From positions 14,997 through 78,996 of the IMG/VR virus record IMGVR_UViG_3300037504_000588: a stretch of DNA of 64,000 nucleotides; one strand, given 5' to 3'. Made by a program: the position numbers and the translations under genes. The stretch comes from a virus. Below, piece after piece: positions 6,889 to 59,181 of this stretch. Each line of letters starts with the position of its first letter. Positions within the stretch are counted from its first letter, which is position 1. The notes below the pieces were generated by a model. That model made no database searches. It was given only the letters and a program-made list of their open reading frames with translations, and was not told where the DNA came from.

Positions 6889-7170
6889 ATGATAACAAAA
6901 GAAAAATTTAAAATCATTAAGGATATAATTTCGTGGGAAGTAAAGGTTATATACATTGAAGATTTGGGTTTTTTTAACCCTGAAAAATTCACCCCCTCCT
7001 ATAGCCAAAATGGAATTGAATTCCATGAACTTGAAGGGTATGATATAACACATCTAATTGATAACTTTAGTTCAAATTATGATTCTAAAAAATTTATTTC
7101 ACAAATTGAAAAAATGAACAAAATTCATTTAAAAATACATAAATCAATAAAATTTATTGTGTTCATGTGA
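6889..7170 (+). CDS. Hypothetical protein
   Basis: ORF directly follows the upstream gene. Confidence 0.5.
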   Translation: MITKEKFKIIKDIISWEVKVIYIEDLGFFNPEKFTPSYSQNGIEFHELEGYDITHLIDNFSSNYDSKKFISQIEKMNKIHLKIHKSIKFIVFM

Positions 7171-7208
7171 AAACAATGTAAAAATAATGAATTTTTATTA
7201 ATTTATAT

Positions 7209-7241
7209 AAAAGTGGTTTCTAAATAGTTACCACTTTTTTT
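7209..7241 (+). terminator. Probable terminator hairpin
   Basis: AAAAGTGGT...ACCACTTTT stem with a T tract. Confidence 0.55.
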
Positions 7242-7252
7242 ATATTTTTTTT

Positions 7253-7313
7253 AAAAAATAATTGTAAAAATATTTTGTTTTTATATATAAAAGTATTATA
7301 TTTGTATTGTATT
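7253..7313 (+). promoter_or_regulatory. Repeated host-type (Bacteroidota sigma-A-like) promoter, copy 1
   Basis: About 60-bp element with TTTG-N19-TATATTTG; near-identical copies at 12253, 21843 and 29946. Confidence 0.8.
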
Positions 7314-7346
7314 TTAATATTTTTTAAACCTAAAAACGCAAGAATT

Positions 7347-7661
7347 ATGAAAGCAACAGAAATTAATTTAAAAAAAGACGGTTTTAATTTTAACTGCAAC
7401 ACTTATCCAGCTCGCTCACATTACAGGTTTACCATGCGCTTAGGATGTGTTTTTCCTACAACAAGAGCACAAGCAAAATACTTTATTACAGAAGATATTT
7501 GGTTAGATGTATTAAACGGTGATGATGTTGAAACGGTTGAATCTATGCTTGTTAAGCATGGATTTGAAGGGGATTACAGATTTACAAAATCAAAAAAATG
7601 GGTTAGGCTTCAAAACCAAATTGATTTACACGAAGCATTAAAAAAAGAATATAACTTATGA
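7347..7661 (+). CDS. Hypothetical early protein
   Basis: ATG 7347 lies downstream of the promoter; the ORF-track start at 7275 lies inside the promoter. Confidence 0.65.
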   Translation: MKATEINLKKDGFNFNCNTYPARSHYRFTMRLGCVFPTTRAQAKYFITEDIWLDVLNGDDVETVESMLVKHGFEGDYRFTKSKKWVRLQNQIDLHEALKKEYNL

Positions 7662-7767
7662 ATAACGAGCAATCAAACGGGCAACAAAAATTATTTCATA
7701 TACAAAATATTAAATTTTATAAAATGAAAACAAAGAACGAAATTATTAAACAGTAAATAACATTGAT

Positions 7768-8055
7768 ATGAAAAATAAAAATAACAATACAATAGAAACT
7801 GAGACCATACCGTATGATGCGATGTTAGCAGCTGATCTTTTTAAGAGTGGGAAGGCATATTATTGTCAGCATTACCCAAGCCGTGAAGAGTGGCTTATAC
7901 TTGGCATAAGTAAAGACTTTAAAAAAGTGTGTGTTGCTGGTTGGCCTCCAACAATTGCTAATGCGGAGGATTGTGAATTATGGAAACTTGCAAGGGATTT
8001 GACAGAAGATGAAATTGAATATAGACAAAAAGAATTTGGCAGCGGGTGGCTTTAG
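7768..8055 (+). CDS. Hypothetical protein (cassette-borne)
   Basis: ORF bracketed by GTTAGCAGC / GCTGCTAAC. Confidence 0.65.
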   Translation: MKNKNNNTIETETIPYDAMLAADLFKSGKAYYCQHYPSREEWLILGISKDFKKVCVAGWPPTIANAEDCELWKLARDLTEDEIEYRQKEFGSGWL

Positions 8056-8173
8056 GCTTGCTGCTAACCATTATATATAAAATCAACAACGAAATAAAAT
8101 AAATTATTAACCAACAATGCTGAATAAATATGCCGATAATGGCGTTTGATGTATTGTTATAAAAAATGTTTTT

Positions 8174-8368
8174 ATGAAAGATGTAGAGATAGTGTATTGG
8201 GGTAAAACACCTTTAACAAACATAGATGTATATATGTTAAATATAATTAATGAAGATGGAACTAAAACACCTGTTTATAGTAATGATAGGGTGTTTGAGG
8301 ATGTACGGTTGATGTGTGATTATGAAACGGCAACAGCTAAAAAAGTAGAACTGTTAAATGTTTTATAA
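8174..8368 (+). CDS. Hypothetical protein (cassette-borne)
   Basis: Stop codon lies within TTTTATAAC. Confidence 0.6.
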   Translation: MKDVEIVYWGKTPLTNIDVYMLNIINEDGTKTPVYSNDRVFEDVRLMCDYETATAKKVELLNVL

Positions 8369-8479
8369 CGGTAAGCATAAGGCAAGTGCCTAAACGAATA
8401 TTGAATAAATGGACTACAACGTTGAGCGTATGCGCCTGTTGGCGTTTTGGTTGAAATTACAAACCTTAAAAACAGACAA

Positions 8480-9028
8480 ATGATAAACGAGATACGAAAC
8501 GACAAAAGTAAGATGGCTATGCAGTATGACACATTGTTATGCCCCGTTATTTTAGACGCCTGCTGTGGTAGTAGAATGTTTTGGTTTGACAAGAAGAATC
8601 CAAATTGTTTATTCATAGATAAACGAAGCGAGACAGTAACAGCAAAAGACAGCAGTCAAAAAAGTGGTTTAAGAACTATTGAAGTAAAACCTGACTTGAT
8701 TGCGGACTTTACAGATATGCCTTTTGAAGATGAGCAATTTGCAATGGTGGTATTTGACCCACCACATCTAAAAACCCTTGGACAAAATAGCTGGATGGCT
8801 AAGAAGTATGGAAGATTGCCTAATGATTGGGAATATATGATTGCAAAGGGTTTTGATGAATGTATGCGAGTGTTGAAACCAGAGGGAACTTTAATCTTCA
8901 AATGGAATGAGCACGAAATTAAATCAAAGCAGGTTTTAGACCTAATACCTTATAAGCCACTTTTTGGACATACAACAGGGAGACAATCTAAAACAATTTG
9001 GATGGCTTTTATGAAGGGTGTCTCCTAA
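8480..9028 (+). CDS. SAM-dependent (amino) DNA methyltransferase
   Basis: ILDACCGSRMFW SAM motif, VFDPPH catalytic motif, RVLKPEGTLIFKW; start uncertain. Confidence 0.85.
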   Translation: MINEIRNDKSKMAMQYDTLLCPVILDACCGSRMFWFDKKNPNCLFIDKRSETVTAKDSSQKSGLRTIEVKPDLIADFTDMPFEDEQFAMVVFDPPHLKTLGQNSWMAKKYGRLPNDWEYMIAKGFDECMRVLKPEGTLIFKWNEHEIKSKQVLDLIPYKPLFGHTTGRQSKTIWMAFMKGVS

Positions 9029-10950: not shown

Positions 10951-12261
10951 ATGTATATATTAAGAGATTATCAAAAAGAAGCAAGTAGAAAAGGATATGA
11001 ATATCTCATCTCTAATAATAAAAAGAATGGATTAATTATTATTCCAACCGGAGGAGGAAAAAGCCTCATCATAGCAGATATAGCTTCTAAATTAAATGAA
11101 AAAATAATAGTTTTACAGCCTTCTAAAGAACTTTTAGAGCAGAACTATAATAAATACCTCTCTTATGGTAACGATGCCACTATCTATTCAGCATCTAAGA
11201 AATCTAAAGAGATAGGAGAAGTTACTTTTGCAACAATTGGAAGTATATATAAAAATCCTGAATTATTTTCTCATATTCCTTATATAATATGGGATGAATG
11301 TCATATAGGATCACCCAATGAAAAGAGTATGCATAAACAATTTTTTAACAATATTGGAGTTAAACTATTAGGAATGACAGCTACTCCATTTAGATTGAAA
11401 AGTTATAATTATCCTGAACCTCATTCTAAGCTTTGTTTTCTAACACGTACACGGCCTAAGTTTTTCCATGATGTTGTACATATAACTCAAATACAAGAGT
11501 TAATAAATGAAGGGTTTTGGAGTAAATTAATATATAAAAAACATGAATTTGATACTTCTAATTTAAAGGTTAATTCAACTGGTGCAAATTATAAAGAATC
11601 TTCTATAAAGGAAGAAATATCAAAACAAAACATCATAGAAGAAGTTGTAAAAGAGGCAAAGCAATTAAAAGATCGTAAACATATTCTTATATTCTTACCA
11701 GATATTAATTCAGCTTTGCAATGCTCAAGAAGGTTAAATTGTAAAACCTTAACAAGTGAAACAAAAAAGAAAGAAAGAGATAAAATAATTGAAGATTTTA
11801 AAAGTGGAAAAGAAAAATTTTTGTGTAATGTTGAAATAATGGGTGTTGGGTTTGATTTTCCTTCATTAGATTGTATTATTGATGCCTATCCTACAATGTC
11901 TTTTGCAAGATATTATCAACGTATTGGAAGACTTGTAAGGCCTGAATCAACAAAGAAAGATGCTTTATATGTTGACATGGTGGAAAACAGTAAATTGTTT
12001 GGCAAGGTAGAAGATTTTGTCATAGAGAATGTAAATGGATGGTATGGATTTAATGGCAAGAAGATAATCACAAATGTCCCTTTGGTAAAGAAAGAAGAAG
12101 TTCCAGATTTAGATAATATAGAAATAGGTTTTGGAAAGTTTAAAGGAACAAAATTTAAAAATCTTCCAAATTGGTATCTAAACTGGGTCAAGGATAATGT
12201 AAAAAAGAATCAATATAATCAATCGTTGTTTCAATACATTAATATTATTTTTAAAAAATAA
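10951..12261 (+). CDS. Superfamily 2 helicase (RadD/YejH-like)
   Basis: PTGGGKS, DECH, TATP, QRIGR, C-terminal FGKFKG domain. Confidence 0.9.
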   Translation: MYILRDYQKEASRKGYEYLISNNKKNGLIIIPTGGGKSLIIADIASKLNEKIIVLQPSKELLEQNYNKYLSYGNDATIYSASKKSKEIGEVTFATIGSIYKNPELFSHIPYIIWDECHIGSPNEKSMHKQFFNNIGVKLLGMTATPFRLKSYNYPEPHSKLCFLTRTRPKFFHDVVHITQIQELINEGFWSKLIYKKHEFDTSNLKVNSTGANYKESSIKEEISKQNIIEEVVKEAKQLKDRKHILIFLPDINSALQCSRRLNCKTLTSETKKKERDKIIEDFKSGKEKFLCNVEIMGVGFDFPSLDCIIDAYPTMSFARYYQRIGRLVRPESTKKDALYVDMVENSKLFGKVEDFVIENVNGWYGFNGKKIITNVPLVKKEEVPDLDNIEIGFGKFKGTKFKNLPNWYLNWVKDNVKKNQYNQSLFQYINIIFKK

Positions 12262-12313
12262 TTGTAAAAATATTTTGTTTTTATATAAAAAAGTATTATA
12301 TTTGTATTGTATT
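12253..12313 (+). promoter_or_regulatory. Repeated host-type promoter, copy 2
   Basis: Same element as at 7253. Confidence 0.8.
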
Positions 12314-14702: not shown

Positions 14703-15494
14703 ATGTGGGATGGACAATATGCTTTTGAAAAAAGCAAAATAATACAAGGTGACTGCCTTGAAAAAATGAAACTAATACCTGATGGAAGTGTTGATATGAT
14801 ACTTGCGGATTTACCTTATGGAACGACTGCTTGTAAATGGGACAGTATTATTCCCTTGGATTTGCTTTGGAAAGAGTACGAGAGGATTGTCAAAGAAAAT
14901 GGAGTTATATGCTTAACTGCAAGCCAACCATTTACAACAAAACTTATTGCAAGCAATTACGGTATGTTTAAGTATGAATTTATTTGGAATAAAGGCAAAA
15001 GCTCAAACTTTATGCTTGCAAAAAAGCAAATACTTAAAATGCATGAACAAATATTAGTGTTCTATCGTAAGCAACCATTCTTTAACCCACCAAAAATAAA
15101 AAGGTGTGAAAAAGATAAACGACCAGCAAATGTAAACAACATTAAGGTTGTTGAGGTTACTGGACAAAAAAGAATAGTTGTTGAATGTAAAAGTAATGAA
15201 AAATTAGAAGGTAGTGTATTTGAACTTAGAGATAGAGAGTATGGCTTGCACCCAACACAGAAGCCAACAAGACTCTTTGAAAAGATGATAAAGACTTACA
15301 CAAACGAAGGCGACATAGTACTTGATAATGTTGCAGGAAGTGGAACAACAGGAGAAGCCTGTATAAACCTAAACAGAGACTTTATACTAATTGAAAAAGA
15401 ACCTAATTATTACGAAGTAATAAAAGAGAGGGTGGGGAAGATTTTTAAAAATTATGGGCTTGACCTACAATCTTTATTAAATGAGCAAATGTAG
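14703..15494 (+). CDS. N4/N6 DNA methyltransferase (beta class)
   Basis: GDCLE, DLPY, HPTQKP, VLDNVAGSGTT. Confidence 0.93.
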   Translation: MWDGQYAFEKSKIIQGDCLEKMKLIPDGSVDMILADLPYGTTACKWDSIIPLDLLWKEYERIVKENGVICLTASQPFTTKLIASNYGMFKYEFIWNKGKSSNFMLAKKQILKMHEQILVFYRKQPFFNPPKIKRCEKDKRPANVNNIKVVEVTGQKRIVVECKSNEKLEGSVFELRDREYGLHPTQKPTRLFEKMIKTYTNEGDIVLDNVAGSGTTGEACINLNRDFILIEKEPNYYEVIKERVGKIFKNYGLDLQSLLNEQM

Positions 15495-21842: not shown

Positions 21843-21894
21843 AAAAATAATTGCAAAAATATTTTGTTTTTATATAAAAAAGTATTATATTTAT
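21843..21894 (+). promoter_or_regulatory. Repeated host-type promoter, copy 3 (variant)
   Basis: Same element, ending TATATTTA instead of TATATTTG. Confidence 0.65.
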
Positions 21895-22485
21895 ATGGTA
21901 GATAATTTTGATTTGATTAAGCCAATGTTAAAATTTGAATCGGAAGATGATTTTTACTTCATTCAAATTTTACAAAGGAAGAAAGATAACCCTAATGGGT
22001 GTAATGGAAGTAGTAATAGTGCCAGGTTAATAAAAGCATATTACATCAACTCAATAGAACATTTGGAAAGTTTAAAAGATGAGATGGTATTTTTTGCCAA
22101 TCATTTTAACTCAAGAGTTGGAATAAACCTAAATAAAAGGAGTTATGAAAAAACGGCTTTTAATACTTTGAAAAAAGTTGCAGAAGTGATGCACAATAAG
22201 AATTTTAAAATGGTAAGAAGAGCATGGAATACCTCTTGCGGTGTGCATAATGGTGGCGATAAAATATGGTTGTTAGATATTGATGTTAAAGACGCAGACT
22301 ATATAAAAAATATAAAGGAATTTGTGCAAAATCAACAACCCAAAAGGGATAAGATATTAGGATTAATTCCTTCAAAAAGTGGATTTCATTTAATTACAAA
22401 GGGGTTTGATTTGAGAGCTTTTAAAAAAGAATACCCAGAGATTGAAATACATAAAAACAATCCAACGAACTTATATATTCCATAA
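21895..22485 (+). CDS. Hypothetical protein with AEP/PrimPol-like motifs
   Basis: WLLDID and SKSGFHLI motifs. Confidence 0.45.
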   Translation: MVDNFDLIKPMLKFESEDDFYFIQILQRKKDNPNGCNGSSNSARLIKAYYINSIEHLESLKDEMVFFANHFNSRVGINLNKRSYEKTAFNTLKKVAEVMHNKNFKMVRRAWNTSCGVHNGGDKIWLLDIDVKDADYIKNIKEFVQNQQPKRDKILGLIPSKSGFHLITKGFDLRAFKKEYPEIEIHKNNPTNLYIP

Positions 22486-22505: not shown

Positions 22506-22718
22506 ATGGAAAAATTTGAAATTCACATTGGTAAGATTTACGACTTAGAAAGTAAAACTGAAAAACCAAAACAAACAATGATTATTACAATAGAGCAATT
22601 TGCAGTAATTGAGCAATTTGCAGACATTAGAAAAGATGAATACCTTAATACGATTTACAGACTAAACCAGTGTGAATTTAAGGTAGTACCTCACATTGAT
22701 TTTAAAAGCAAAAAGTAG
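22506..22718 (+). CDS. Hypothetical protein
   Basis: Followed directly by GTGCTAAC. Confidence 0.5.
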   Translation: MEKFEIHIGKIYDLESKTEKPKQTMIITIEQFAVIEQFADIRKDEYLNTIYRLNQCEFKVVPHIDFKSKK

Positions 22719-22746
22719 TGCTAACGGGATTGGCGTAATAAGCCAT

Positions 22747-22959
22747 GTTATAAATCTGTAAAATTATGGATAAACCAACAATTAAGGATTTGCAAAGGTG
22801 GTTAAAATATAATATAGATGAATGTATTCGCTTTAGAAAAAAAGCGGGTGGGGAGGAAAGATATGAAGACGCAATGGAATTGAAACATATGGAGAATACT
22901 TATAAAAAAGTATGGTTAAAATTAGAAAGAATGCAGGAGTAATTTTATTGTTTTATAAC
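22747..22959 (+). mobile_element. Single integron-like cassette carrying a 58-aa ORF (22766-22942)
   Basis: GTTATAAATCTGTAAAATT / AATTTTATTGTTTTATAAC inverted ends (16/19). Confidence 0.65.
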
Positions 22960-23070
22960 GTTGAGTATATGGTAAGTTGGGGATTAAAATGTGCTGACCC
23001 TTCAGCTTGCGACAAATAAAACAAAACGGATTGCGGTATGGTATCGTGCGGAATTTTTAAAACCTAATAT

Positions 23071-23769
23071 ATGAAACATACATGTGAACAGATTTATGAA
23101 ATTGGAGCTAATAACAAAGTGTATGGCCATGAAAAAGGTCTTTGCCGAATAACAGGCAAAGAAAGTACAGGGGTGCTTTTTGATAAGTGGGTTAGAAACA
23201 CATTCAATGACCACGACTATCTTTTTCCTGGTACTATAATTTCAAACGAAGCTTTATTTTGCTTTGATGAAAGCTCAGAGATTGTTCAGCGAAAAACTGG
23301 ACGTGGTAAACCCCAAAGATTCCGCACGTATTCTCATATTATTAAAGATGGTGAGTGGTATTGCGTTACGAAAGGCGATAAACGAAAGATATTTGAATTA
23401 ATAGTTGAAGGTGCTGAAGTGGTTTGTCTGACCGAAACAGGACAAAAACACGTATTGTTTAAGCATAAAAATGGCATGTGGCAGCTTGATGAATTGCATG
23501 TAAAACCAGATATTGAATTATTAGGCTTACTGCATTACCACATGTGTGAGCTACTTGCATATCAATTTTCACAATCTGAAATTATCACAGGAGATTATAA
23601 ATCAAATAGAATTTTGAAAGCTGGTTTAAAAAACTGGAAAGAACACGAAAATATTATAAAAGAATACCGTGGTAGTGGCATATTTGATTTTACTTCATTC
23701 ATACTTTACACGGACGAAAAGAAACAGGCAACGCCCGAACCTGTAAGTAAACCGGGCAAAGAAATATAA
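23071..23769 (+). CDS. csf1: Type IV CRISPR large subunit Csf1 (Cas8-like)
   Basis: Degenerate N-terminal Zn-finger-like region (CRITG...TFNDHD), GQKH motif, first gene of the csf operon. Confidence 0.7.
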   Translation: MKHTCEQIYEIGANNKVYGHEKGLCRITGKESTGVLFDKWVRNTFNDHDYLFPGTIISNEALFCFDESSEIVQRKTGRGKPQRFRTYSHIIKDGEWYCVTKGDKRKIFELIVEGAEVVCLTETGQKHVLFKHKNGMWQLDELHVKPDIELLGLLHYHMCELLAYQFSQSEIITGDYKSNRILKAGLKNWKEHENIIKEYRGSGIFDFTSFILYTDEKKQATPEPVSKPGKEI

Positions 23770-23777
23770 AAATCATT

Positions 23778-24125
23778 ATGGAATTAACTCAGGAATTAGT
23801 TGCCGAAAACCTTCTATGGGGTTTGTGGCGAAGTATTACCGAGGATTACAAAACGCAATATCCTCGTGAAATTTGGGAGCATTACGAAAATGCTCTACGT
23901 TCAGCAAGCTACACAGATAGCTTGAAAGTATTCTTAACCAATTTCCAACGCCGTATACCTATCGATATTCAGGCGCAATACAATAAAGATATTCTTTCAG
24001 TTGTAGAAGCTGGCGAAGATGATACAGTACTTAATTGGCTAAGAACAGAAACCACCTACCTAACCATGTTGGTTAGACTTAGAAATCAGGAAAGAAAAGA
24101 ATCATTAAAAGAATTAAACTCATGA
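23778..24125 (+). CDS. cas11: Type IV-B small subunit Cas11
   Basis: 115-aa helical protein between csf1 and csf2. Confidence 0.65.
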   Translation: MELTQELVAENLLWGLWRSITEDYKTQYPREIWEHYENALRSASYTDSLKVFLTNFQRRIPIDIQAQYNKDILSVVEAGEDDTVLNWLRTETTYLTMLVRLRNQERKESLKELNS

Positions 24126-25024
24126 AAACTTTAATCTTAGAGGGAAATTGCACGGCTTTAAGTTCAATTAGCCATAATGGAGGCGAAAAAAACGGAACAA
24201 TAGTACAATTACGCCGTGAGAAATTTGTACAACCCAAAGGCAAAGTAGTTGAAATTCCTGTTATATCAGGAAATAGTATTCGGGGGAAACTTCGAGACTT
24301 GGCTGCTATTGACATTTTAACAAAAAAAGACGGGGTAAAAGTTCAGGTTGATGCTGATAGTTTTAACTTGTTATTTTCCGGTGGTTCGCTTGAAAGTGTT
24401 GGCGAGAAAAATTTAAACATCGACAAGGTGCGTCAAATGCGAAAAGACATACCAATGATTTCGGTACTTGGATGTTCAGTCGGTAATATAATTGTGCCGG
24501 GTAAAGTTGACATAGGTAAAATGATCCCTATTTGTAAAGAAACCTTACACCTTATTCCCGAAAAATTCCATGGCACGGAAGAAATAAAAACAATTTGGGA
24601 GTATTGTCAGGTCGAAATGAACACCCGAAAAGACGACACAAAAGATGAAAACAAGCGGGAATTTATCAAAGAAGAAGATAAGACCGAAGATTTGCGAGGT
24701 GGGCAGATGATGTACTACACCGAAACTTTAGTTACAGGCACTCGCTTTTACTGGAAAGTTTGTTTGCGAGATACTACCGACATTGAAACAGGTGCTTTTC
24801 TATCTATTCTGCAAAGTTGGGTAGCTCAAAGTTCACAGGTAGGCGGCAATGGGCGTGTAGGGCATGGTCGTTTAAAAGTTGATTTAACCGAAACTTCGGT
24901 TGTTGATTCTGACATGAAGTTTGAAAACTCCGACTTCGTAACCTATATTGACAAAGCTAACGAAGCTAAAAAAGATGTAACAGATTATTTTGAAAAAGGA
25001 GTTTCAAAAACACTATTTAAGTGA
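24122..25024 (+). CDS. csf2: Type IV CRISPR backbone Csf2 (Cas7 RAMP)
   Basis: LSSISH, IPVISGNSIRGKLR, LLFSGG, QMMYYTETL, Gly loop VGGNGRVGHG. Confidence 0.88.
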   Translation: MKTLILEGNCTALSSISHNGGEKNGTIVQLRREKFVQPKGKVVEIPVISGNSIRGKLRDLAAIDILTKKDGVKVQVDADSFNLLFSGGSLESVGEKNLNIDKVRQMRKDIPMISVLGCSVGNIIVPGKVDIGKMIPICKETLHLIPEKFHGTEEIKTIWEYCQVEMNTRKDDTKDENKREFIKEEDKTEDLRGGQMMYYTETLVTGTRFYWKVCLRDTTDIETGAFLSILQSWVAQSSQVGGNGRVGHGRLKVDLTETSVVDSDMKFENSDFVTYIDKANEAKKDVTDYFEKGVSKTLFK

Positions 25025-26292
25025 TGGGAAAGATATATTTAGATAAAAATGTATTTGAAGCTTTTTCAGAGAGAGTAAATTATATATTCGATGAATTTAA
25101 GTTAGTCTATATAAGTTTTTCTGGAGGTAAAGACAGTTCTGTTATGATTCAGCTGGTTAATGAGATAGCAAAAAAGAGAGGTAGAACTTTTTTTGTATAT
25201 TACGTTGATTTGGAAGCTCAATATACTGCAACAATAAATCATGTTTACGAATTAAAACAATTATCTCAAATAGAAAAGTTTTATCATTTGTGCTTACCTA
25301 TGTCATTAACTAATGCATCATCAATACTTCAACCAAAATGGACATGTTGGGATAAAAATGTCAAAGAAAAATGGGTTAGAGATATGCCAGATGATTGCAT
25401 TAATATTGATAACCATGATTTTGGAGATTATTATTTTGAAGGTATCGAGTTTGAGCAGTTTATGAAAAAATTCCCTGCATACTTAATGAAAAAACATAAT
25501 GAAAATAAAATTGCAGGGTTGGTTGGAATAAGAAGTGATGAATCTTTAAATCGGTTCAGGGCGATAGCGTTTGGTAAAAATATTTATAAAGATAAAAAAT
25601 GGACTACTGATAATGGGAACGGTTATTATTCGATATATCCCATTTATGATTGGAAGACACAAGATATATGGGGAGCTACATTTAAGTTTTCTTTAAAGTA
25701 CAATAAGGTGTATGAAATGATGCTTAAAAATGGTGTAGGAATACATGAACAAAGGATTTGCCACCCTTACGGAGCAGACCAAAGAGTATCTTTAAACCAA
25801 TGGGCAGCAATAGAACCGAAAACATGGGATAAAATAGTTAATAGGGTTTCAGGTACTAATTTTGGAAACATCTATTGTAAAACTTCTTTATTAGGACATA
25901 ACGGGACAGAAAAACCAAAACATTTAACTTGGCAAGAATATTCAATATTTCTATTGGAATCTATTGGCATGTACTCACCGACATTAATGAATCATTATGT
26001 CAGAAAATTGAAAATATACTTTAAATACTATAAAGACAATTATAATCTTAAAATAAAAGATATACCTGATTATAGAACACCAAAAGAAGCTAAAGAGCAT
26101 GGTAAAGGTATTCATTGGAAAAAAATTGCTAAATGTTTAGAAAAAAACGATTTTGCTTGTACTTCATTAAGTTACGGATTAACAAATGATGATATTGAGG
26201 ATGCAAAAAAATTAAAAAAAGAATGGAAAGATAGTTTAGGTATTCAAGAAACAACGAAAGTAATGAAAACATTAAAAGAAAAAATATCATGA
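25024..26292 (+). CDS. ibrA: IbrA/YbdN-like PAPS-reductase-family protein (DUF3440)
   Basis: SFSGGKDS, GIRSDESLNRF, PIYDW, QRICHPYG, NRVSGTNFG. Confidence 0.88.
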   Translation: MGKIYLDKNVFEAFSERVNYIFDEFKLVYISFSGGKDSSVMIQLVNEIAKKRGRTFFVYYVDLEAQYTATINHVYELKQLSQIEKFYHLCLPMSLTNASSILQPKWTCWDKNVKEKWVRDMPDDCINIDNHDFGDYYFEGIEFEQFMKKFPAYLMKKHNENKIAGLVGIRSDESLNRFRAIAFGKNIYKDKKWTTDNGNGYYSIYPIYDWKTQDIWGATFKFSLKYNKVYEMMLKNGVGIHEQRICHPYGADQRVSLNQWAAIEPKTWDKIVNRVSGTNFGNIYCKTSLLGHNGTEKPKHLTWQEYSIFLLESIGMYSPTLMNHYVRKLKIYFKYYKDNYNLKIKDIPDYRTPKEAKEHGKGIHWKKIAKCLEKNDFACTSLSYGLTNDDIEDAKKLKKEWKDSLGIQETTKVMKTLKEKIS

Positions 26293-26801
26293 TAAAATTT
26301 CCAGTATTAGATGTAAAAATGGTTGATATAGATTTGGTTTATAGTAATGATTACAATCCCAATGCAGTTGCTCCACCTGAAATGCAGTTGTTGAAGAAAT
26401 CAATAGAAGAAGATGGATATACGCAACCTATTGTAACATTTTACGATAAATTAGAAGATAAATATATAATAGTAGATGGTTTTCATAGATATCGGTGCGC
26501 TAAAGAGTTTTTTAATTTAGATAAAATACCTATAGTTGTAATCAATAAACCTATTCAAAATAGAATGGCATCTACTATAAGGCATAACAGAGCGAGAGGT
26601 ACACATTCTATTAAAGGAATGAGCAGTATAGTTATGGAATTAACAAAAAAGGGTTGGGAAAACACTCAAATTTGTGAACATTTAGGAATGGAATTGGAAG
26701 AAGTTATTAGGTTAAAACAAATAACTGGACTAAAGGAAGCATTTGCAAATCATAAATTTTCAAAAAGTTGGGAAGAATTTGAAATTAATAATAATGGATA
26801 A
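26289..26801 (+). CDS. ibrB: IbrB/YbdM-like ParB/Srx-domain protein
   Basis: NDYNPNAVAPPEM, DGYTQPIV, VDGFHR, STIRHNRARGTH. Confidence 0.9.
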   Translation: MIKFPVLDVKMVDIDLVYSNDYNPNAVAPPEMQLLKKSIEEDGYTQPIVTFYDKLEDKYIIVDGFHRYRCAKEFFNLDKIPIVVINKPIQNRMASTIRHNRARGTHSIKGMSSIVMELTKKGWENTQICEHLGMELEEVIRLKQITGLKEAFANHKFSKSWEEFEINNNG

Positions 26802-27474
26802 AAAAACAGCTTTATTATACGCTCAATTAAAGCCTTATAAAGCCCTGGTGAATAAAACATCAGGCTTTATAAGATGGGCTTTGGAGCGTGTTGGAAATCC
26901 TTACGTTGCTTGTTCTTTCGGTAAGGATAGCACCGTAATGCTTCATTTAATTTTACAACATGATCCTGATATTCCTGTTCGCTTCGCTTCACATCCTGAA
27001 ACAAGGATTTTAGATAATTATGATGAAGTTATAAATGAATGGATAAATAGAGGAATCAATTATCATGAAATTTATTGCAAGGGAGGGTTAGTAAAGGTGA
27101 GATATGCACAAAGAAAAGCATTAGATGCTTTACATGAAGATTGGGATTCTTTTTTTGTTGGTATAAGAAAACAAGAATCATTCGGAAGGCGTGTATCTTT
27201 AAAAAAACATGGAATGTTTCATCAATTAAAATCTACTGGAAGGGTAAAAATAAGTCCATTGTCTGATTGGACAGAAAAAGAAATAGCGGTTTACATTTTA
27301 GTAAATGATTTACCTGTTTTAAATAAATATAATATAGAGGGTTTTTCCGCAAGAACAACAAGCGGAATACCAAGGACTAATATTGAAGAGTGTTTAATAT
27401 CGTTAAAACAACGAGATATTGAAAGCTACAATAAATTATGTCAATTATTTCCTGACACTAAATATTTTGGATAA
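26794..27474 (+). CDS. cysH: Type IV-B-associated CysH-like PAPS-reductase-family protein
   Basis: SFGKDS PP-loop, GIRKQESFGR, PLSDW; ATG at 26794. Confidence 0.8.
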   Translation: MDKKTALLYAQLKPYKALVNKTSGFIRWALERVGNPYVACSFGKDSTVMLHLILQHDPDIPVRFASHPETRILDNYDEVINEWINRGINYHEIYCKGGLVKVRYAQRKALDALHEDWDSFFVGIRKQESFGRRVSLKKHGMFHQLKSTGRVKISPLSDWTEKEIAVYILVNDLPVLNKYNIEGFSARTTSGIPRTNIEECLISLKQRDIESYNKLCQLFPDTKYFG

Positions 27475-28130
27475 TGAACGAATTTAAACAGCTAAGAATA
27501 AGAGCCTATTTAAAAACAGGTGTAATAAGCGACCAATATCTACCTTTAGATGGTGTTTTATATTACCACCTTGTGCGCCGTGAAATGGGCGAAGAAATAA
27601 TAACAAAAAGCCGTGAGAGTAATGTAAGGCAGGGAGCCAATATTACTTTACCGATAAAAAAATCGGGACTAAAGAATAACCTTTGGTTTTACGCTTGCTC
27701 TTTTGCTCAATTTCCAGAATATGTTGTCGAAGATTCAAGTTTTAAAGTAAAGTCGGGCGATTGGCTAAAACATAGTCAACATTTTAACGCAAAAAAGAAA
27801 ATAGACATACAGCGTGGCAAATATAAAAACGCTCATATTAAGCTGTATTACAGGCATTGTGAGTACATAGACTGGTATTGTGTCGGCGTTCCTGAAAAAC
27901 TTGCTGAATTACTTAAATTCTGTACCAATTTAGGCAAAAACACAGGAGATGGATGGGGAGAGGTTTTGAAATGGGAAATAAAAGAGTGGCCAGAAGATTG
28001 GAGTGTAAGAGGTGCTGGCAATAAGTTAATGCGGAATGTACCACTAAAACAAAACGGCAGAGGGATTATGTACGGAATGCGTCCAAGCTACTGGAACCCA
28101 CGACACATTGCTGTATGTAAGATGCCGTGA
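27474..28130 (+). CDS. csf3: Type IV CRISPR Csf3 (Cas5 RAMP)
   Basis: LPLDGVL, WFYACS, Gly loop LGKNTGDGWG, RPSYW. Confidence 0.82.
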   Translation: MNEFKQLRIRAYLKTGVISDQYLPLDGVLYYHLVRREMGEEIITKSRESNVRQGANITLPIKKSGLKNNLWFYACSFAQFPEYVVEDSSFKVKSGDWLKHSQHFNAKKKIDIQRGKYKNAHIKLYYRHCEYIDWYCVGVPEKLAELLKFCTNLGKNTGDGWGEVLKWEIKEWPEDWSVRGAGNKLMRNVPLKQNGRGIMYGMRPSYWNPRHIAVCKMP

Positions 28131-28349
28131 TTGTTGACGTCAGTTCTTTAATTTAAAAAGTTGATGTTGAAACAAGGAAAACAGAAGAAAATTAATCAGC
28201 AATTATTTAGATCACCAAATCAAAAATTAAATCCACAATAAAAAAATAATGATAAAAAATTAATGTAATTCTTTTTAAAATATGTAATTATTTATTAATT
28301 TTATACTTTATTGAATTAAATATTTTAATTTTATATATATAATTTATAT

Positions 28350-29465
28350 ATGGCACAAAAAAATAAAAAAACATCAAATAAGAATCAAAAAGAACAGAAG
28401 AAAGTATTGTCTGTGCCAGATTATGTTATAGAAAAGGGTGAAAATGCCAAAAAGGCTTATATTGAGTGGGTTAAGTTAGATGAAAAGATACACGAACACC
28501 CAAAAAGATTTATACAAGTTCCACATCCAGATGATCCTTCCGATATGGTAGAGATAGATTGTATACAAGCATTATCTGCTATTCGTAAGAAAATCAAACA
28601 TTTACCTAAAAAAGAAAGAGATAAAATAGAGGCAATATGGAAAGAGTTGCAGTCTTTAAAAGCCAAGAAGGGAGGACTAAAGAAACAATGGGATAATGTT
28701 ATGTATAAAGGTAAGATGACCACCCTTTTTGACTACAAGAAGTCTGAATTATTGCAGTTGTTTGGTTCATATAAGACTAATAGTGAGGTATATGAGATTA
28801 TAAAGAAAGATTGGGGCTATCATACAACAATGAACAAACTCAATGAGTTCAAAATGGCTAATAAAGAGCGCATTGCAGAACTTAGAAGAGAATGGACGGA
28901 GAATTGCGGCGATTTTGATCTTGCACACAAGAGAGGAAGGTTAGAAAGGTTAGCATATATTGCTAATACTCAGATAGATAAATATAAAGAAAGTGGACAT
29001 AAACCAATTTATGCTAAACAGGCTCAATCTGCTATTGAGCAGATTAAAAAAGAAGTGGATGGAGAAGAGATAACTCTTAACGTTAAAGGGCATATAGATG
29101 TACGTAAAACATTGATAGTTAATCAATCTATAGATGAAATAACAAAAAAGGTTAACCTTAATAGTTTTATAGTTGCCCTTGTTAGCGCACAAAGAGGACT
29201 TGATTCTATAAAATTTATGAATAGACTGTCAAACAGCTATTACAGTTCATACACAGGTTTTAATAAGAAGGATAGCAATGAGAAAGAAATACAATACCCT
29301 TCTAAATTTATCTATAATTGGAATGAGATAGAATTAAAACATAAACAAGGAGAAGTAAATCAAGATATACAAGATGTTGAATATGAAGAGATTAATGAAG
29401 ATGACGAGTTAAGACAGAAATTGAAATCAAGAATCAAAAAAAGAAGGCAAGAATTGGGTGATTAA
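28350..29465 (+). CDS. Possible terminase small subunit / packaging protein
   Basis: LAHKRGRLERL...AIEQIKKE resembles DUF2280-type proteins; lies upstream of the head module. Confidence 0.35.
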   Translation: MAQKNKKTSNKNQKEQKKVLSVPDYVIEKGENAKKAYIEWVKLDEKIHEHPKRFIQVPHPDDPSDMVEIDCIQALSAIRKKIKHLPKKERDKIEAIWKELQSLKAKKGGLKKQWDNVMYKGKMTTLFDYKKSELLQLFGSYKTNSEVYEIIKKDWGYHTTMNKLNEFKMANKERIAELRREWTENCGDFDLAHKRGRLERLAYIANTQIDKYKESGHKPIYAKQAQSAIEQIKKEVDGEEITLNVKGHIDVRKTLIVNQSIDEITKKVNLNSFIVALVSAQRGLDSIKFMNRLSNSYYSSYTGFNKKDSNEKEIQYPSKFIYNWNEIELKHKQGEVNQDIQDVEYEEINEDDELRQKLKSRIKKRRQELGD

Positions 29466-29951: not shown

Positions 29952-30003
29952 TTGTAAAAATATTTTGTTTTTATATAAAAAAGTATTATATTTGTATTGT
30001 ATT
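29946..30003 (+). promoter_or_regulatory. Repeated host-type promoter, copy 4
   Basis: Same element as at 12253. Confidence 0.8.
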
Positions 30004-52497: not shown

Positions 52498-54090
52498 ATG
52501 AAATATCTTTTAAATATACTATTATTATTAATAATACCTCTATTGTTGCAAGGACAGAAGTATTATGTAACCGATTCATCAAGAACTTATTATATAACCG
52601 ATTCATCAGTTACATATTATATATATTATGATTTACCTGGAGCTGCTTTAATGCATTTAAACGGAAATGTTTCTACGATTAACAATAAAATTGACACCGT
52701 CTTCGATGAAAACAATCACTATAACGCTATTCAAACTGACACCTCAAAGTCTCCTTCTTTAGTAGATGGAAGCTGGCAATTTGATGGTATTGATGATTAT
52801 GTTGAAGTGGCTGATAACAATAATTTAGATTTACAAAATAATTTTACTGTCAGTGCATGGGTCAACGCTAACGGTATATCAGGAGCGCCTCAAGGCATTT
52901 TGTCTAAAGGTAATTACTCATTAAAAGAGTATGATGATGATTATATTTTTGAAGTTTTAGGAGACGGGACTACATGGAGTAAGTCAGGTGACGTAGGTAA
53001 TACCCCTTTTGGTTTGGCTGCATACGATGGTAAATTATATATAGCATGTCGATATAGTGACGATGTTTACGTATTCGACGGTACTTCCTGGAGCAAATCA
53101 GGTAATGTAGGTGATGAACCTTTTGGTTTAGCCGTCTACGACAGTAAATTATATACAGTATGTCAATATAGTGACGATGTCTACGTATTTGACGGAACCT
53201 CCTGGAGTAAATCAGGCGACGTAGGTAATGACCCTCGTGGTTTAGCTGTATATGATGGTAATTTATATGTAGCATGTTTTGGTAGTGATGACATTTACGT
53301 ATTTGACGGTACTTCATGGAGTAAATCAGGTAACGTAGGTACTTCCCCTCGTGGTTTGGCTGCATATGGTGGTAAATTATATACAGCATGTGCAGGTAGT
53401 AATGATGTCTACGTATTTGATGGAACTACATGGACTAAATCAGGTGACGTAGGTGATACCCCTCTTGGATTAGCCGTCTACAATGGCAAATTATACGTAA
53501 CCAATGCAGGCAGCAATGACATTTATGTATTTGATGGTACTTCCTGGACAAAATCAGGTGACGTAGGTAATGCCCCTTTTGGATTAGCCGTCTACAATGG
53601 CAAATTATACGTAACATGTGTAATCAGCAATGACATTTATGTATTCGACGGAACCTCCTGGACAAAATCAGGTAATGTAGGTGATTTTCCTCGTGGTTCG
53701 ACTACATATGATGGTAAATTATATGTAACATGTTCAGGTAGTGACGATGTCTCCGTATTTAGTACAGGAGAGAGTTTATGGGCAAGTAAAGGTACTGGAT
53801 ACGAACAATTAATAGGAGTTGTGACAGGCGATGAAATTAAATTATATGTCAATGGAGAGGAAAAAGCATCAACTGCACACTCTTTAACATTTGATAATAA
53901 TGATAACTCGTTGTTGATAGGTAAAAGTTATGGTTCTTCACAGTCAGGGCTAACTGGAGGTAATAGTGAAGTATTCAACGGCTCAATAGACGAAGTAATA
54001 ATTTTTGATCGTGCTTTAATTAAGAATGAGGTTCAAGAATTATATAACTCTTGCGATACAACAGGAGGAGTATTAAATTGTAATTATTAA
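52498..54090 (+). CDS. Signal-peptide LamG-domain protein with an inserted 7-blade beta-propeller
   Basis: FDGIDDYV, FTVSAWV, LYVNG, FNGSIDEV; seven 38-aa repeats. Confidence 0.8.
   Translation: MKYLLNILLLLIIPLLLQGQKYYVTDSSRTYYITDSSVTYYIYYDLPGAALMHLNGNVSTINNKIDTVFDENNHYNAIQTDTSKSPSLVDGSWQFDGIDDYVEVADNNNLDLQNNFTVSAWVNANGISGAPQGILSKGNYSLKEYDDDYIFEVLGDGTTWSKSGDVGNTPFGLAAYDGKLYIACRYSDDVYVFDGTSWSKSGNVGDEPFGLAVYDSKLYTVCQYSDDVYVFDGTSWSKSGDVGNDPRGLAVYDGNLYVACFGSDDIYVFDGTSWSKSGNVGTSPRGLAAYGGKLYTACAGSNDVYVFDGTTWTKSGDVGDTPLGLAVYNGKLYVTNAGSNDIYVFDGTSWTKSGDVGNAPFGLAVYNGKLYVTCVISNDIYVFDGTSWTKSGNVGDFPRGSTTYDGKLYVTCSGSDDVSVFSTGESLWASKGTGYEQLIGVVTGDEIKLYVNGEEKASTAHSLTFDNNDNSLLIGKSYGSSQSGLTGGNSEVFNGSIDEVIIFDRALIKNEVQELYNSCDTTGGVLNCNY
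52963..53760 (+). repeat. 7 x 114-bp coding tandem repeat
   Basis: DGTxWxKSGxVGxxPxGLAxYxGKLY...DVYVF unit. Confidence 0.95.
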
Positions 54091-56518: not shown

Positions 56519-57592
56519 ATGATGAAAAAATATTTGATCATATTATTGTTAATTGTTGGGTATGTAAGTATTAATGCACAAGATCAGGGCGTATTGTCGT
56601 TAAGTCAACTGTCAAGTGCAAATGCAACAGATGCTTATTATGTCTCAACTACTGATAGTGGAGATTTTCACGTTCGTTGGTCAACTTTATACAATGATGT
56701 ATATAATTATTACCCTGATAGATTGACTGGATTAGATACTGTAGACAATAATTATTATCTTATAGTTAATAAAGACAGTGTTGCATATAAAATAAAATGG
56801 AGTGTTTTCTTAGATTCACTTAATGTAGATGTTTATGATAGCGTGAGAGGTATAGTGAATGATACTGCGAATGTATTAAGAATAGAATGGAGAGTTGATA
56901 TAAATGACAGTTTAGGCAGATTTTGGGATTCAGTAGTGGTGGAAGGTTATGTCAACGATACTCTTAATTATTACATTGATTCAGTATCCATTATTGACAC
57001 TATTAATTCAATAATTAATGATAGTTTGGACAGATTTTGGGATTCGGTAGAAGTTAAAAATTACGTAAACGATACTATTAATTATTACATTGATTCAACC
57101 GCAACAATCGACACAATTAATTCCTTGATAAATGACAGCCTATCTACCTATTATGATTCAACAGAGGTAAGAAATCACGTAAACGATACTCTTAATTATT
57201 ACATTGATTCAGCTTCTATAATTGATACTATTAATTCAATCGTTAACAGCAAAATATATTTAAATAAACCTTTTTCAACATATACGTCTAATTCTGTAAC
57301 AATTAGTTGTGATAGCTCGGGATATAGCGAGATTGATATAAGTGGTGACTTAACGATTAATTTCAACCCTCTACCTTCTGCTGGAGAAATGTCGTCCTGG
57401 ACAATAATGATAAATGGGGATGCGACAGCAAGGGACTTGACGATACAAGAATCAGGAACAGCAATTGATTCATTATATTGGAGCAACGCTAATGAATTAG
57501 ATAGTATTCCTGCGAATGATACAATTGTCGTAGGTGCTAACATTAATAATTCAGGGGTATGGTTTATGAATTATTTAAAAAGAGGAAATTAA
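56519..57592 (+). CDS. Signal-peptide protein with 23 D-S/T-hydrophobic sequons
   Basis: MMKKYLIILLLIVGYVSINAQ; three 38-aa repeats. Confidence 0.7.
   Translation: MMKKYLIILLLIVGYVSINAQDQGVLSLSQLSSANATDAYYVSTTDSGDFHVRWSTLYNDVYNYYPDRLTGLDTVDNNYYLIVNKDSVAYKIKWSVFLDSLNVDVYDSVRGIVNDTANVLRIEWRVDINDSLGRFWDSVVVEGYVNDTLNYYIDSVSIIDTINSIINDSLDRFWDSVEVKNYVNDTINYYIDSTATIDTINSLINDSLSTYYDSTEVRNHVNDTLNYYIDSASIIDTINSIVNSKIYLNKPFSTYTSNSVTISCDSSGYSEIDISGDLTINFNPLPSAGEMSSWTIMINGDATARDLTIQESGTAIDSLYWSNANELDSIPANDTIVVGANINNSGVWFMNYLKRGN
56903..57244 (+). repeat. 3 x 114-bp coding tandem repeat
   Basis: NDSL...DS...VNDT.NYYIDS...IDTINS unit. Confidence 0.9.
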
Positions 57593-59181
57593 TGAAAACT
57601 AAAATATTAGTATTATTAACAATATTAACAATAAAAGTATCTGGACAGGGGCTTGTTAGTCCTGTTTGGATGAATGCAACAGAGGAAGATATAGTAAGTT
57701 ATTGTACTGAGGTGGGTTTAATATCTTGCTATACATTTGATGGTTTAACATGGACTAAATCAGGTGACGTAGGTGATGCTCCTTATGATTTAGCTGATTA
57801 CAATAGCAAATTGTATGTATCTTGTTCCAGTCCCGATGGTGTTTATGTATTCGATGGTAGTACTTGGTCTAAATCAGGAGACGTAGGCAGTGGAGCTCGA
57901 GGTTTAGCAGTCTACGATGGTAATTTGTATGTATCTTGTTATGGTTCCGATGATGTGTATGTATTCAACGGTAGTACCTGGACAAAATCAGGAGACGTAG
58001 GCACTTCTCCTCAAGGCTTAGCAGTTTATGATGATAGTTTATATGTTGTTTGTTCTGGTTCTAATGATGTCTACGTTTATGATGGTTCAACCTGGACTAA
58101 ATCAGGTGATGTCGGTAATAGTCCTTATAGTTTAGCAGTTTATAACGATAATTTGTATGTATCTAATGGTGGTTTTAGTGACATCCACGTTTATGATGGT
58201 TCAACCTGGACTAAATCAGGTGATGTCGGTAATAGTCCTCGAGATTTAGCTGTTTATGATGGTAGTTTATATGTTGCTTGTTCTGGTTCTGATAGTGTGT
58301 ACGTATTCAATGGTAGTACTTGGTCTAAATCGGGAAAAGTAGAAGATGCTCCTCATGGTTTAACAACATATAATGGTAAATTGTATGTATCTTGTTCTAG
58401 TTCCGATGATGTCTATGTATTCAATGGTAGTACCTGGTCTAAATCAGGTGACGTAGGTGATTCCCCTTATAGTTTAGCAACATATAACGGTAGTTTGTAT
58501 GTAGCTTGTTATTTAGACAATGATGTCTACGTATTCAATGATTCATTAGATCAATACGGAAGCAATGAACCAATTAAGCCAGTTTACGCTGAATATCTAC
58601 CAGATTCAGGAATATTAGGTGGTACGTATAAATTTGAAAAAGATACAATTAATCTAGATCAAGTTTTCAGTTACAATGATTTTACTTATTCAATGTGGGC
58701 ATACAAAATAGGGGATGCGATTTATGATGTAACAGGAACATTGATTTCAAGATATTCATCAAGTAGTTCTCCTAATGAGAAATCTTTTTATCTTAGGTGG
58801 GAAGATTCTGACTTTGTGGGCAGGAGTGATTCTCTGATGTTTGCTTTGTACGATGGGAGTGTTGCAGGTTTTGGAACTGAATATCTTATACATAGCGATA
58901 CAAGTCTAAATCATCAGCAATGGTATCATATTGTGGCGTCAGTTGGAGATAGTATGAAGTTATATATTGATGGTGAATTGAGTAATACAGGAGCAGCTCC
59001 TGATACTATTAATTATTACAACAATACGTTTAATATAGGAGGTGTTAATAAATCAACAACAAGACCTGATTTACTCTTTAATGGATATATCGATGAATTA
59101 AGAGTGTACAATAGAGAATTAACAGAATCAGAAATACAATGTCTTTATAACGAAGGGTTTGGAATAACTTGCCCTAAATAA
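57592..59181 (+). CDS. Signal-peptide LamG protein with 7-blade beta-propeller (paralog of 52498)
   Basis: ATG 57592 MKTKILVLLTILTIKVSGQ; WYHIV, LYIDG, FNGYIDELRVYNR. Confidence 0.8.
   Translation: MKTKILVLLTILTIKVSGQGLVSPVWMNATEEDIVSYCTEVGLISCYTFDGLTWTKSGDVGDAPYDLADYNSKLYVSCSSPDGVYVFDGSTWSKSGDVGSGARGLAVYDGNLYVSCYGSDDVYVFNGSTWTKSGDVGTSPQGLAVYDDSLYVVCSGSNDVYVYDGSTWTKSGDVGNSPYSLAVYNDNLYVSNGGFSDIHVYDGSTWTKSGDVGNSPRDLAVYDGSLYVACSGSDSVYVFNGSTWSKSGKVEDAPHGLTTYNGKLYVSCSSSDDVYVFNGSTWSKSGDVGDSPYSLATYNGSLYVACYLDNDVYVFNDSLDQYGSNEPIKPVYAEYLPDSGILGGTYKFEKDTINLDQVFSYNDFTYSMWAYKIGDAIYDVTGTLISRYSSSSSPNEKSFYLRWEDSDFVGRSDSLMFALYDGSVAGFGTEYLIHSDTSLNHQQWYHIVASVGDSMKLYIDGELSNTGAAPDTINYYNNTFNIGGVNKSTTRPDLLFNGYIDELRVYNRELTESEIQCLYNEGFGITCPK
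57739..58536 (+). repeat. 7 x 114-bp coding tandem repeat, homologous to 52963-53760
   Basis: xGSTWxKSGDVG unit. Confidence 0.95.

Follow-up and report, generated by a model that had tools for sequence, protein, structure and literature searches.

A stretch of 64,000 nucleotides of viral DNA (positions 14,997 to 78,996 of IMG/VR record IMGVR_UViG_3300037504_000588; hereafter the window) carries on its + strand, between 23071 and 28130, seven open reading frames (ORFs) whose stops and starts overlap or nearly abut. In the order csf1-cas11-csf2-ibrA-ibrB-cysH-csf3 they form a phage-borne, array-less type IV-B CRISPR effector operon. Here we find that the ibrA-ibrB pair of this operon is an exact, recent insertion, that the interval between csf2 and csf3 is a site at which enzymes are swapped between phages, and that IbrA/IbrB (IbrAB) recur with type IV-B loci in a non-random way. 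On balance we lean, by a small measure, towards reading the locus as a Csf ribonucleoprotein that works with exchangeable nucleic-acid-modifying enzymes, travels as a discrete, horizontally exchanged cassette and has here received IbrA/IbrB in addition. Type IV-B is the one widespread CRISPR-Cas subtype of no known function, for which the CysH-like partner was the sole prior clue. Phage-borne type IV-B loci, the missing array and the link to cysH have been described before (PMC7038947, PMC8175902, PMC10848311 and a preprint of 2018, 10.1101/270033), and rare Cas6 and ADP-ribosyltransferase neighbours of type IV-B have already been mentioned in the literature. What is new is the anatomy of the cassette, i.e. 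the swappable csf2-csf3 enzyme slot and the insertion and recurrence of IbrAB. In the literature that we searched, no report ties IbrAB, ParB-fold proteins or methyltransferases to type IV-B, and no paper establishes the biochemical function of IbrA/IbrB. The features of the operon are as follows (lengths in amino acids, aa).

23071..23769, + strand: csf1, small Cas8-like subunit, 232 aa (predicted fold and position)
23778..24125, + strand: cas11, all-helical small subunit, 115 aa (predicted fold)
24122..25024, + strand: csf2, Cas7 backbone subunit, 300 aa (TIGR03115 and profile match to 7jhy_e)
25024..26793, + strand: inserted ibrA-ibrB segment, 1770 bp, ATGG at both borders (homology break and empty site)
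25024..26292, + strand: ibrA, PP-loop PAPS-reductase-family domain plus DUF3440, 422 aa (PF01507, PF11922, PHROG 2302)
26289..26801, + strand: ibrB, ParB/Srx-fold protein with a DGFHR motif, 170 aa (PF02195, PHROG 2159)
26794..27474, + strand: cysH-like (CasCysH-type) PP-loop enzyme, 226 aa (PF01507)
27474..28130, + strand: csf3, Cas5 subunit, 218 aa (TIGR03116 and solved Csf3 relatives)

Comparison with at least 40 related cassettes maps the insertion precisely. DNA homology to these relatives ends at about 25027 and picks up again at about 26792, and the inserted segment opens with the ibrA ATG, in overlap with the csf2 stop (TGATG), and its last base directly precedes the cysH ATG. The stop-start overlaps are kept across the insert and the coupled architecture is preserved. 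An assembly chimera is ruled out by a second assembly of the likely source run, which covers 22561-28600 with zero differences, and by a run of another study that bridges the csf2/ibrA junction and holds pieces of both ibrA and ibrB.

We then characterized the cassette that received this insert. Relatives were gathered by Csf2-anchored scans of viral, metagenome and genome contigs, to which a phage isolate and a reference plasmid were added. The scans rely on short peptide patterns, and the locus counts given below are samples and no census; trees are quick or FastTree builds, ORF calls are over-extended in high-G+C loci, and the set of 57 other non-redundant loci leaves out the gene context of 587 metagenomic Csf2 homologues. 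These 57 loci are arranged as csf1-cas11-csf2-[slot]-csf3, or else the enzyme comes after csf2-csf3. DNA similarity between the window and its relatives opens at 23055-23071, at most 16 bases from the csf1 start, and closes at 28130-28141, at most 11 bases past the csf3 stop, and no flanking gene is common to the window and the related cassettes. Since homology stops at the ends of the cassette and the flanks are unrelated, the cassette moves between unrelated phages as a block. Compared to one relative (L015), the csf1-csf2 DNA is 81% identical and the proteins Csf2 and Cas11 are 92% and 94% identical, respectively; this excess of protein over DNA identity indicates that the core is under purifying selection. 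A decaying, non-functional CRISPR effector remnant that is passively carried would likewise have no array, adaptation genes or nuclease, but such a remnant is highly improbable here: all seven frames are intact and coupled, the protein identity stands well above the DNA identity, and the cassette persists in dozens of phages over Csf2 identities from 44% to 92% with its key motifs invariant.

The slot between csf2 and csf3 holds different enzymes in different cassettes. A CysH-like gene occupies it in 30 of the 57 loci and follows csf3 in 11 more; a Trm-like methyltransferase is found in six, Cas6 together with a CysH-like gene in three and IbrAB in one, and in the remaining six the csf2-csf3 interval contains no recognised enzyme. 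In three cassettes whose Csf2 is 92%, 90% and 74% identical to that of the window, the CysH-like protein is 56%, 30% and 77% identical, respectively. Because the two identities do not track each other, the slot recombines independently of the core. The slot methyltransferase of the six cassettes is a class I enzyme of 155 aa whose nearest families are tRNA and rRNA methylases (one member matches RrnaAD at 3e-6 and TRM5 at 2.6e-4), and its Atlas clusters carry the TRM family. Its profile also matches Pyrococcus PH0793, which we take to be a Trm5-type enzyme, at 0.003. On the Csf2 tree, the methyltransferase swap needs three to five changes. Cas6 (PF10040, about 1e-14) stands beside the CysH-like gene in three viral or metagenome-assembled cassettes (L066 9678-10355, L070 8975-9622 and L103 6945-7664); no CRISPR array lies within 8 kb in L066 and L070, the two that the array search covered, L103 being outside it. 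A 72-kb viral contig (L072) has a DSP-like phosphatase and a SpoU-family methylase between cysH and csf3 (7613-8140 and 8137-8538). One of the six cassettes without a recognised enzyme label (L105, bin Massilibacteroides) has two slot proteins and no CysH-like gene: the first (6942-7664) shows a DpdA/TGT fold (Atlas template modelling (TM) score 0.74-0.80; PHROG 887, 7e-4) and the second (7800-8744) is beta-glucosyltransferase-like (PHROG 7922, 5e-5). As judged from these family and fold matches, the occupants form a coherent set: each enzyme cuts, methylates, exchanges or in some other way changes nucleic acids.

In two metagenome contigs (L045 4403-4492 and L046 3603-3692) similarity to the cassette ends 30 codons into csf2 and the contigs continue for 300-1100 bases; their csf2 may be truncated, replaced or interrupted.

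To follow the enzyme pair from its own side, viral loci were anchored on IbrA. The IbrA-IbrB pair occurs in 223 of 50,697 phage records, and 78 of 80 viral IbrA loci have an IbrB-like gene close to ibrA. A scan of viral contigs with the single IbrA protein found nothing, whereas the alignment-based scan found these loci, and five of the 80, on five contigs and in four gene orders, carry csf genes beside ibrAB. Csf2 and Csf3 in the csf-linked loci were confirmed independently by NCBIfam. The five contigs, whose type IV-B loci are distantly related to that of the window, are arranged as follows.

L063: csf2-ibrA-ibrB-csf3, with no CysH-like gene in the 28 kb covered
L170: csf2-cysH-ibrA-ibrB-csf3
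L112 and L113: csf3-ibrA-GNAT-ibrB-cysH
L117: csf3-cysH-(four small ORFs)-ibrA-ibrB

Type IV-B was seen in some tens of 2.9 million viral contigs in these scans, and from this rarity about 0.002 csf-adjoining loci would be expected by chance among 80; a hundredfold undercount would raise the figure to 0.2. The original prediction, which had made its case depend on whether ibrAB accompanies type IV-B beyond chance, is upheld on this point. The locus L063 (G+C 61%, Csf2 45% identical to that of the window) was found by the Csf2-anchored and the IbrA-anchored scans alike, and no CRISPR-like array lies within its flanks. One scan of genome contigs with a Csf2 alignment returned nine loci, none of them with IbrAB. 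Within the IbrA tree, the number of origins required for the genes linked to type IV-B is four by the tree as built and at least two if only well-supported branches are counted. A clade of seven unites four of these genes, that of the window among them, with three IbrAs from phage records in which Csf2 is absent. The window IbrA is 45% identical to a stand-alone Clostridium phage IbrA compared to 39% to that of L063, and the closest relative of the L063 protein is a stand-alone Chlorobiaceae phage IbrA (57% identical). These relationships indicate that IbrAB has been recruited to type IV-B repeatedly, independently and non-randomly. Independent recruitment that recurs, three times into the csf2-csf3 interval (window, L063 and L170), is hard to explain otherwise and points to a functional link between IbrAB and type IV-B.

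An exact insert can also be read as a self-contained IbrAB module, e.g. a phage DNA modification against restriction, that landed in a recombination-prone junction and borrows only expression from its neighbours. Several observations agree with two such independent modules and weigh against a Csf complex that works with IbrAB. IbrAB is mostly stand-alone, as 75 of the 80 viral IbrA loci have no csf gene. Within the well-supported Csf2 clade of the window, ibrAB is absent from all 16 other members, and it is polymorphic in the habitat: a contig in a run of a fourth study (X4, a tidal-flat metagenome) joins 25023 directly to 26794 with four shared letters. Since ibrAB is missing from the 16 clade members and an empty-site variant circulates, the cassette can do without the pair, which may be recent cargo. 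IbrAB is not a core part of the cassette, and the original prediction is not supported as it was put on this point. Other junctions of the cassette also gain unrelated genes, namely small ORFs of 115-138 aa and no known family between csf1 and cas11 (L002 2138-2554, L008 3207-3554, L012 2476-2835) and a Vsr/DUF559-type endonuclease between cas11 and csf2 (L072 5208-6020). Two unconnected modules do not sit well, however, with five csf-adjoining loci where about 0.002 are expected, with an association that arose at least twice and reached the csf2-csf3 interval in three lineages, with the use of IbrAB in L063 instead of a CysH-like enzyme, or with slot fillers that are coherent nucleic-acid enzymes and not random cargo. 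We therefore consider it unlikely that the two are unconnected.

The identity of the individual proteins was established as follows. Csf2 matches TIGR03115 (E 4e-25; 88.7 bits, below the curated 130) and further repeat-associated mysterious protein (RAMP) families, and a profile of Csf2 and its relatives matches the type IV-B Csf2 chain 7jhy_e at 7.8e-51 compared to 1e-9 to 1e-13 for type IV-A Csf2. Csf3 matches TIGR03116 over its full length (E 6e-18; 65 bits, below the curated 140), and its best solved relatives are the Csf3 chains 8rc3_F and 7xfz_B. The proteins starting at 24122 and 27474 are thus Csf2 and Csf3, and the test by RAMP fold that had been set beforehand comes out in favour of the prediction. 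Csf1 and Cas11 match no family in Pfam, NCBIfam or PHROGs, and the Csf1 sequence finds no match in the PDB; models of both were built by AlphaFold-type prediction from alignments of viral relatives. The top Foldseek match of the Cas11 model (predicted local distance difference test (pLDDT) 93.9) is 7jhy_g from the type IV-B complex, with a probability of 0.98 and a TM score of 0.67. This is further supported by a collinear hhalign match to the protein at the Cas11 position of Rhodococcus jostii RHA1 (E 0.0026). The Csf1 model (pLDDT 82.5) aligns end to end in VIA-align, over 186 residues, to 8rc3_G (Z 9.9) and 7xg1_A (Z 9.4), the next match being at Z 3.5. The structures 8rc3 and 7xg1 are type IV-A effector complexes, and we read the two chains as Csf1/Cas8 by exclusion since they are neither Csf3 nor Csf2 chains. 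The 23071 protein is assigned as Csf1 by its predicted fold only; hhalign against RHA1 Csf1 is weak (E 0.06), and the gene is kept at the same position in all related cassettes.

IbrA matches PF01507 (2e-13), PF11922 (9e-25) and PHROG 2302 (4e-83), has the canonical PP-loop SGGKDS and finds no sequence match in the PDB; its start is most likely the ATG at 25024. IbrB matches PF02195 (7e-10) and PHROG 2159 (7e-67), and the two together constitute an IbrA/IbrB module, in which a PAPS_reduct plus DUF3440 protein adjoins a ParB_N protein. The CysH-like enzyme matches PF01507 at 3e-15, and its profile matches PAPS reductases and CysD at about 1e-10. Across 13 CysH-like sequences SxGKxS does not vary, and the C-terminal region has no conserved cysteine. 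By sequence it fits the CasCysH type, i.e. a PAPS-reductase fold with a PP-loop and without the C-terminal catalytic cysteine. Its start is most likely the ATG at 26794 and not the ORF-opening TTG at 26743, because the alignment to homologues begins at residue 17-18 and homology at the DNA level sets in again at 26792.

Taken with the adjoining cysH-like gene, the set of Csf1, Cas11, Csf2 and Csf3 without DinG, RecD, Cas6, array, Cas1 or Cas2 places the locus in subtype IV-B, and the 7jhy_g match provides the Cas11-like small subunit that separates IV-B from IV-A. Over its full 78,996 bp the record, which by the CheckV estimate covers about 75% of the genome, has no Cas1, Cas2 or Cas6. The record likewise holds no CRISPR-like repeat and no DinG-type helicase, its sole Helicase_C_2 trace being a ResIII/SNF2-type helicase 11 kb upstream, and a type IV-A assignment, tested on the record by DinG helicase, Csf5/Cas6 and CRISPR array, finds none of the three. 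The seven coupled genes and the phage-borne, array-less type IV-B effector with a CysH-like gene that had been proposed from the letters alone are thus borne out by ORFs, hidden Markov models and structural models, and the absence of cas1, cas2, cas6, dinG and array now extends from the window to the record.

How might such a cassette work? In the mechanism that we infer, Csf1, Cas11, Csf2 and Csf3 would assemble a nuclease-less ribonucleoprotein filament on RNA that is not encoded by the cassette. The csf2-csf3 interval is the enzyme slot, filled by different nucleic-acid-modifying enzymes in different phages; its ancestral occupant here is the CysH-like PP-loop ATP pyrophosphatase without redox cysteine, beside which a second PP-loop enzyme, IbrA, and its ParB/Srx partner IbrB were precisely inserted. 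The filament would hold or find a nucleic acid, RNA or DNA, and the slot enzymes, through physical or functional coupling to it, would chemically alter that nucleic acid. The PP-loop enzymes may adenylate a position at the expense of ATP, with substitution at that position to follow, and the modification could serve the phage in conflict with its host or with rival elements. A Csf ribonucleoprotein with exchangeable enzymes is favoured because a filament of type IV-B Csf2 and Cas11 on heterogeneous RNA has been published (PMC7937560), the CysH-like proteins have an invariant PP-loop and no conserved C-terminal cysteine, and the PP-loop of IbrA is canonical. The gene cysH has been described as a nearly invariant type IV-B partner without the reductase cysteine (PMC7038947, PMC8175902).

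Regarding the substrate, the slot contents suggest different answers by analogy. The Trm1/Trm5-like, SpoU and TGT families suggest RNA, while the DpdA-like and T4-type glucosyltransferase-like proteins and the Dnd-like PP-loop/ParB pairing suggest DNA. This mixture of canonical substrates also counts against the favoured mechanism, as do two further points. The slot enzymes have unrelated folds, which makes a single common docking site unlikely, and repeat, Rfam, homology and folding checks found no conserved non-coding RNA or array that accompanies the cassette.

The operon has also been read as counter-defence. A Csf filament could soak up host CRISPR RNAs (crRNAs) or other small RNAs, with the PP-loop enzymes disabling the captured RNA, and so blunt RNA-dependent immunity. 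In favour stand the phage carrier, a complex that lacks array, Cas6 and nuclease, the heterogeneous RNA bound by the solved type IV-B structure (PMC7937560) and the descent of several slot enzymes from RNA-modifying families. Pinilla-Redondo et al. raised sequestration and found type IV-B negatively correlated with other CRISPR systems (PMC7038947), yet they judged so costly an anti-CRISPR unlikely. Moreover, in E. coli the complex failed to load co-expressed type I-E crRNA (PMC8175902), and the DpdA-like and glucosyltransferase-like slot contents better fit DNA. Such an RNA sponge seems to us improbable, somewhat more so than two unconnected modules.

If the Csf ribonucleoprotein with exchangeable enzymes is generalized, type IV-B as a whole would be a CRISPR-derived machine that presents an RNA-bound or RNA-selected nucleic acid to an exchangeable enzyme (PP-loop adenylating, IbrAB, Trm-like/SpoU or DpdA/TGT-like), a viral and prokaryotic counterpart of guide-RNA-directed modification, and the phage described here would have been caught adding or swapping an enzyme. 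In this broad form we offer the idea tentatively and regard it as rather doubtful. Box C/D and H/ACA small nucleolar ribonucleoproteins would be alike in possible working only, as an RNA-bound scaffold combined with a modifying enzyme, and some slot enzymes are RNA methyltransferases as well; there is no homology, the likeness is our inference and no guide is known for type IV-B.

The Dnd phosphorothioation system likewise combines a PAPS-reductase-family PP-loop enzyme, DndC, with a ParB-fold protein, DndB, whose fold is ParB-like. The analogy to DndC that had been drawn at the outset turns out to be weak: the two PP-loop enzymes of the operon score 17.6 and 17.1 bits on the DndC model TIGR03183, against a cut-off of 290, and DndA, DndD and DndE are unrecognised. 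The CasCysH type also differs from Dnd in having no catalytic cysteine (13 sequences; PMC8175902).

Actinobacterial plasmid type IV-B loci (the Csf complex of Mycobacterium sp. JS623, PDB 7JHY, and pRHL2 of Rhodococcus jostii RHA1) share the four effector genes, their order and their approximate sizes with the phage operon; they too have a CysH-like gene and lack an array, Cas6 and a helicase, and the Csf2 and Cas11 chains of 7JHY are the best solved matches to the phage proteins. In contrast to the plasmid loci, where cysH lies outside the operon, the phage cysH stands between csf2 and csf3, the carrier is a lytic-type phage record and not a plasmid, Csf2 is about 30% identical and IbrA/IbrB is inserted. 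Virus-borne type IV-B with a CysH-like gene and no adaptation module is also found in Skermania phage SPI1 (Orf40-44) and in Fuxiviridae viruses of Bathyarchaeia (PMC10848311). Unlike the window, SPI1 has csf3 ahead of cysH and no IbrAB, and a mini-array and Cas4 are present in the Fuxivirus; an exchangeable enzyme slot or IbrAB is described in neither report. The IbrA/IbrB module of phages and E. coli (PHROG 2302 and PHROG 2159) shows the same domain pair, adjoining and coupled. Elsewhere it usually lies in replication or early regions without Cas genes, whereas here it is embedded in a Cas operon.

With its partner position a swap site for coherent nucleic-acid-modifying enzymes, and with IbrAB, a common phage module whose function is not known, recruited to it repeatedly, the locus makes type IV-B function experimentally approachable: there are natural cassettes that differ in the slot only, and both insert and empty-site forms. 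A link to type IV-B would give IbrAB its first functional context.

The carrier is a tailed phage. Its window has a G+C content of about 30%, holds nearly every ORF of at least 80 aa on the + strand and also codes for a ribonucleotide reductase, helicases, a portal and a major head protein. The habitat is a tidal flat, and public tidal-flat metagenomes contain both the insert-bearing and the empty-site form; among the public runs listed as carrying the sequence there is no RNA run. A host among the Bacteroidota is probable from indirect hints: contigs of relatives are binned with Bacteroidota and Ignavibacteriota, and the ibrB DNA is 73% similar to Flavobacterium phages.

Several searches addressed the surroundings of the operon. 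No tRNA was found in the window setting examined, and no Rfam family matched the window. The 128-nt gap upstream of csf1 was considered as the RNA partner and rejected, since it folds no better than shuffled sequences (z 0.11) and is not conserved by the relatives. A scan for sigma-70 promoters and terminators returned no more sites than shuffles did. A repeated intergenic motif lies upstream of the operon:

21845..21907, + strand: repeated intergenic motif, putative phage promoter or regulatory element, heading the transcription block that contains the operon

The AT-rich, 34-nt core of this motif occurs in four copies on the + strand (7268-7301, 12268-12301, 21857-21890 and 29958-29991), where none would be expected in the window, and in a fifth, degenerate copy at 28318-28351; two copies extend to 63 nt with 92% identity. 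Probably it acts as a promoter or regulatory element of the phage and marks off transcription blocks; the type IV-B operon sits in the block opening at 21857.

Some 8-12 kb upstream, and not adjoining the operon, lie the ResIII/SNF2-type superfamily 2 helicase (10951-12261) and an N6/N4 DNA methyltransferase (14703-15494). The structural region holds tandem arrays of a 114-nt (38-aa) repeat at 52963-53760, 56900-57240 and 57751-58540, within three large ORFs (52498-54090, 56519-57592 and 57559-59181); the arrays resemble repeated beta-propeller-type units in tail-fibre or receptor-binding proteins.

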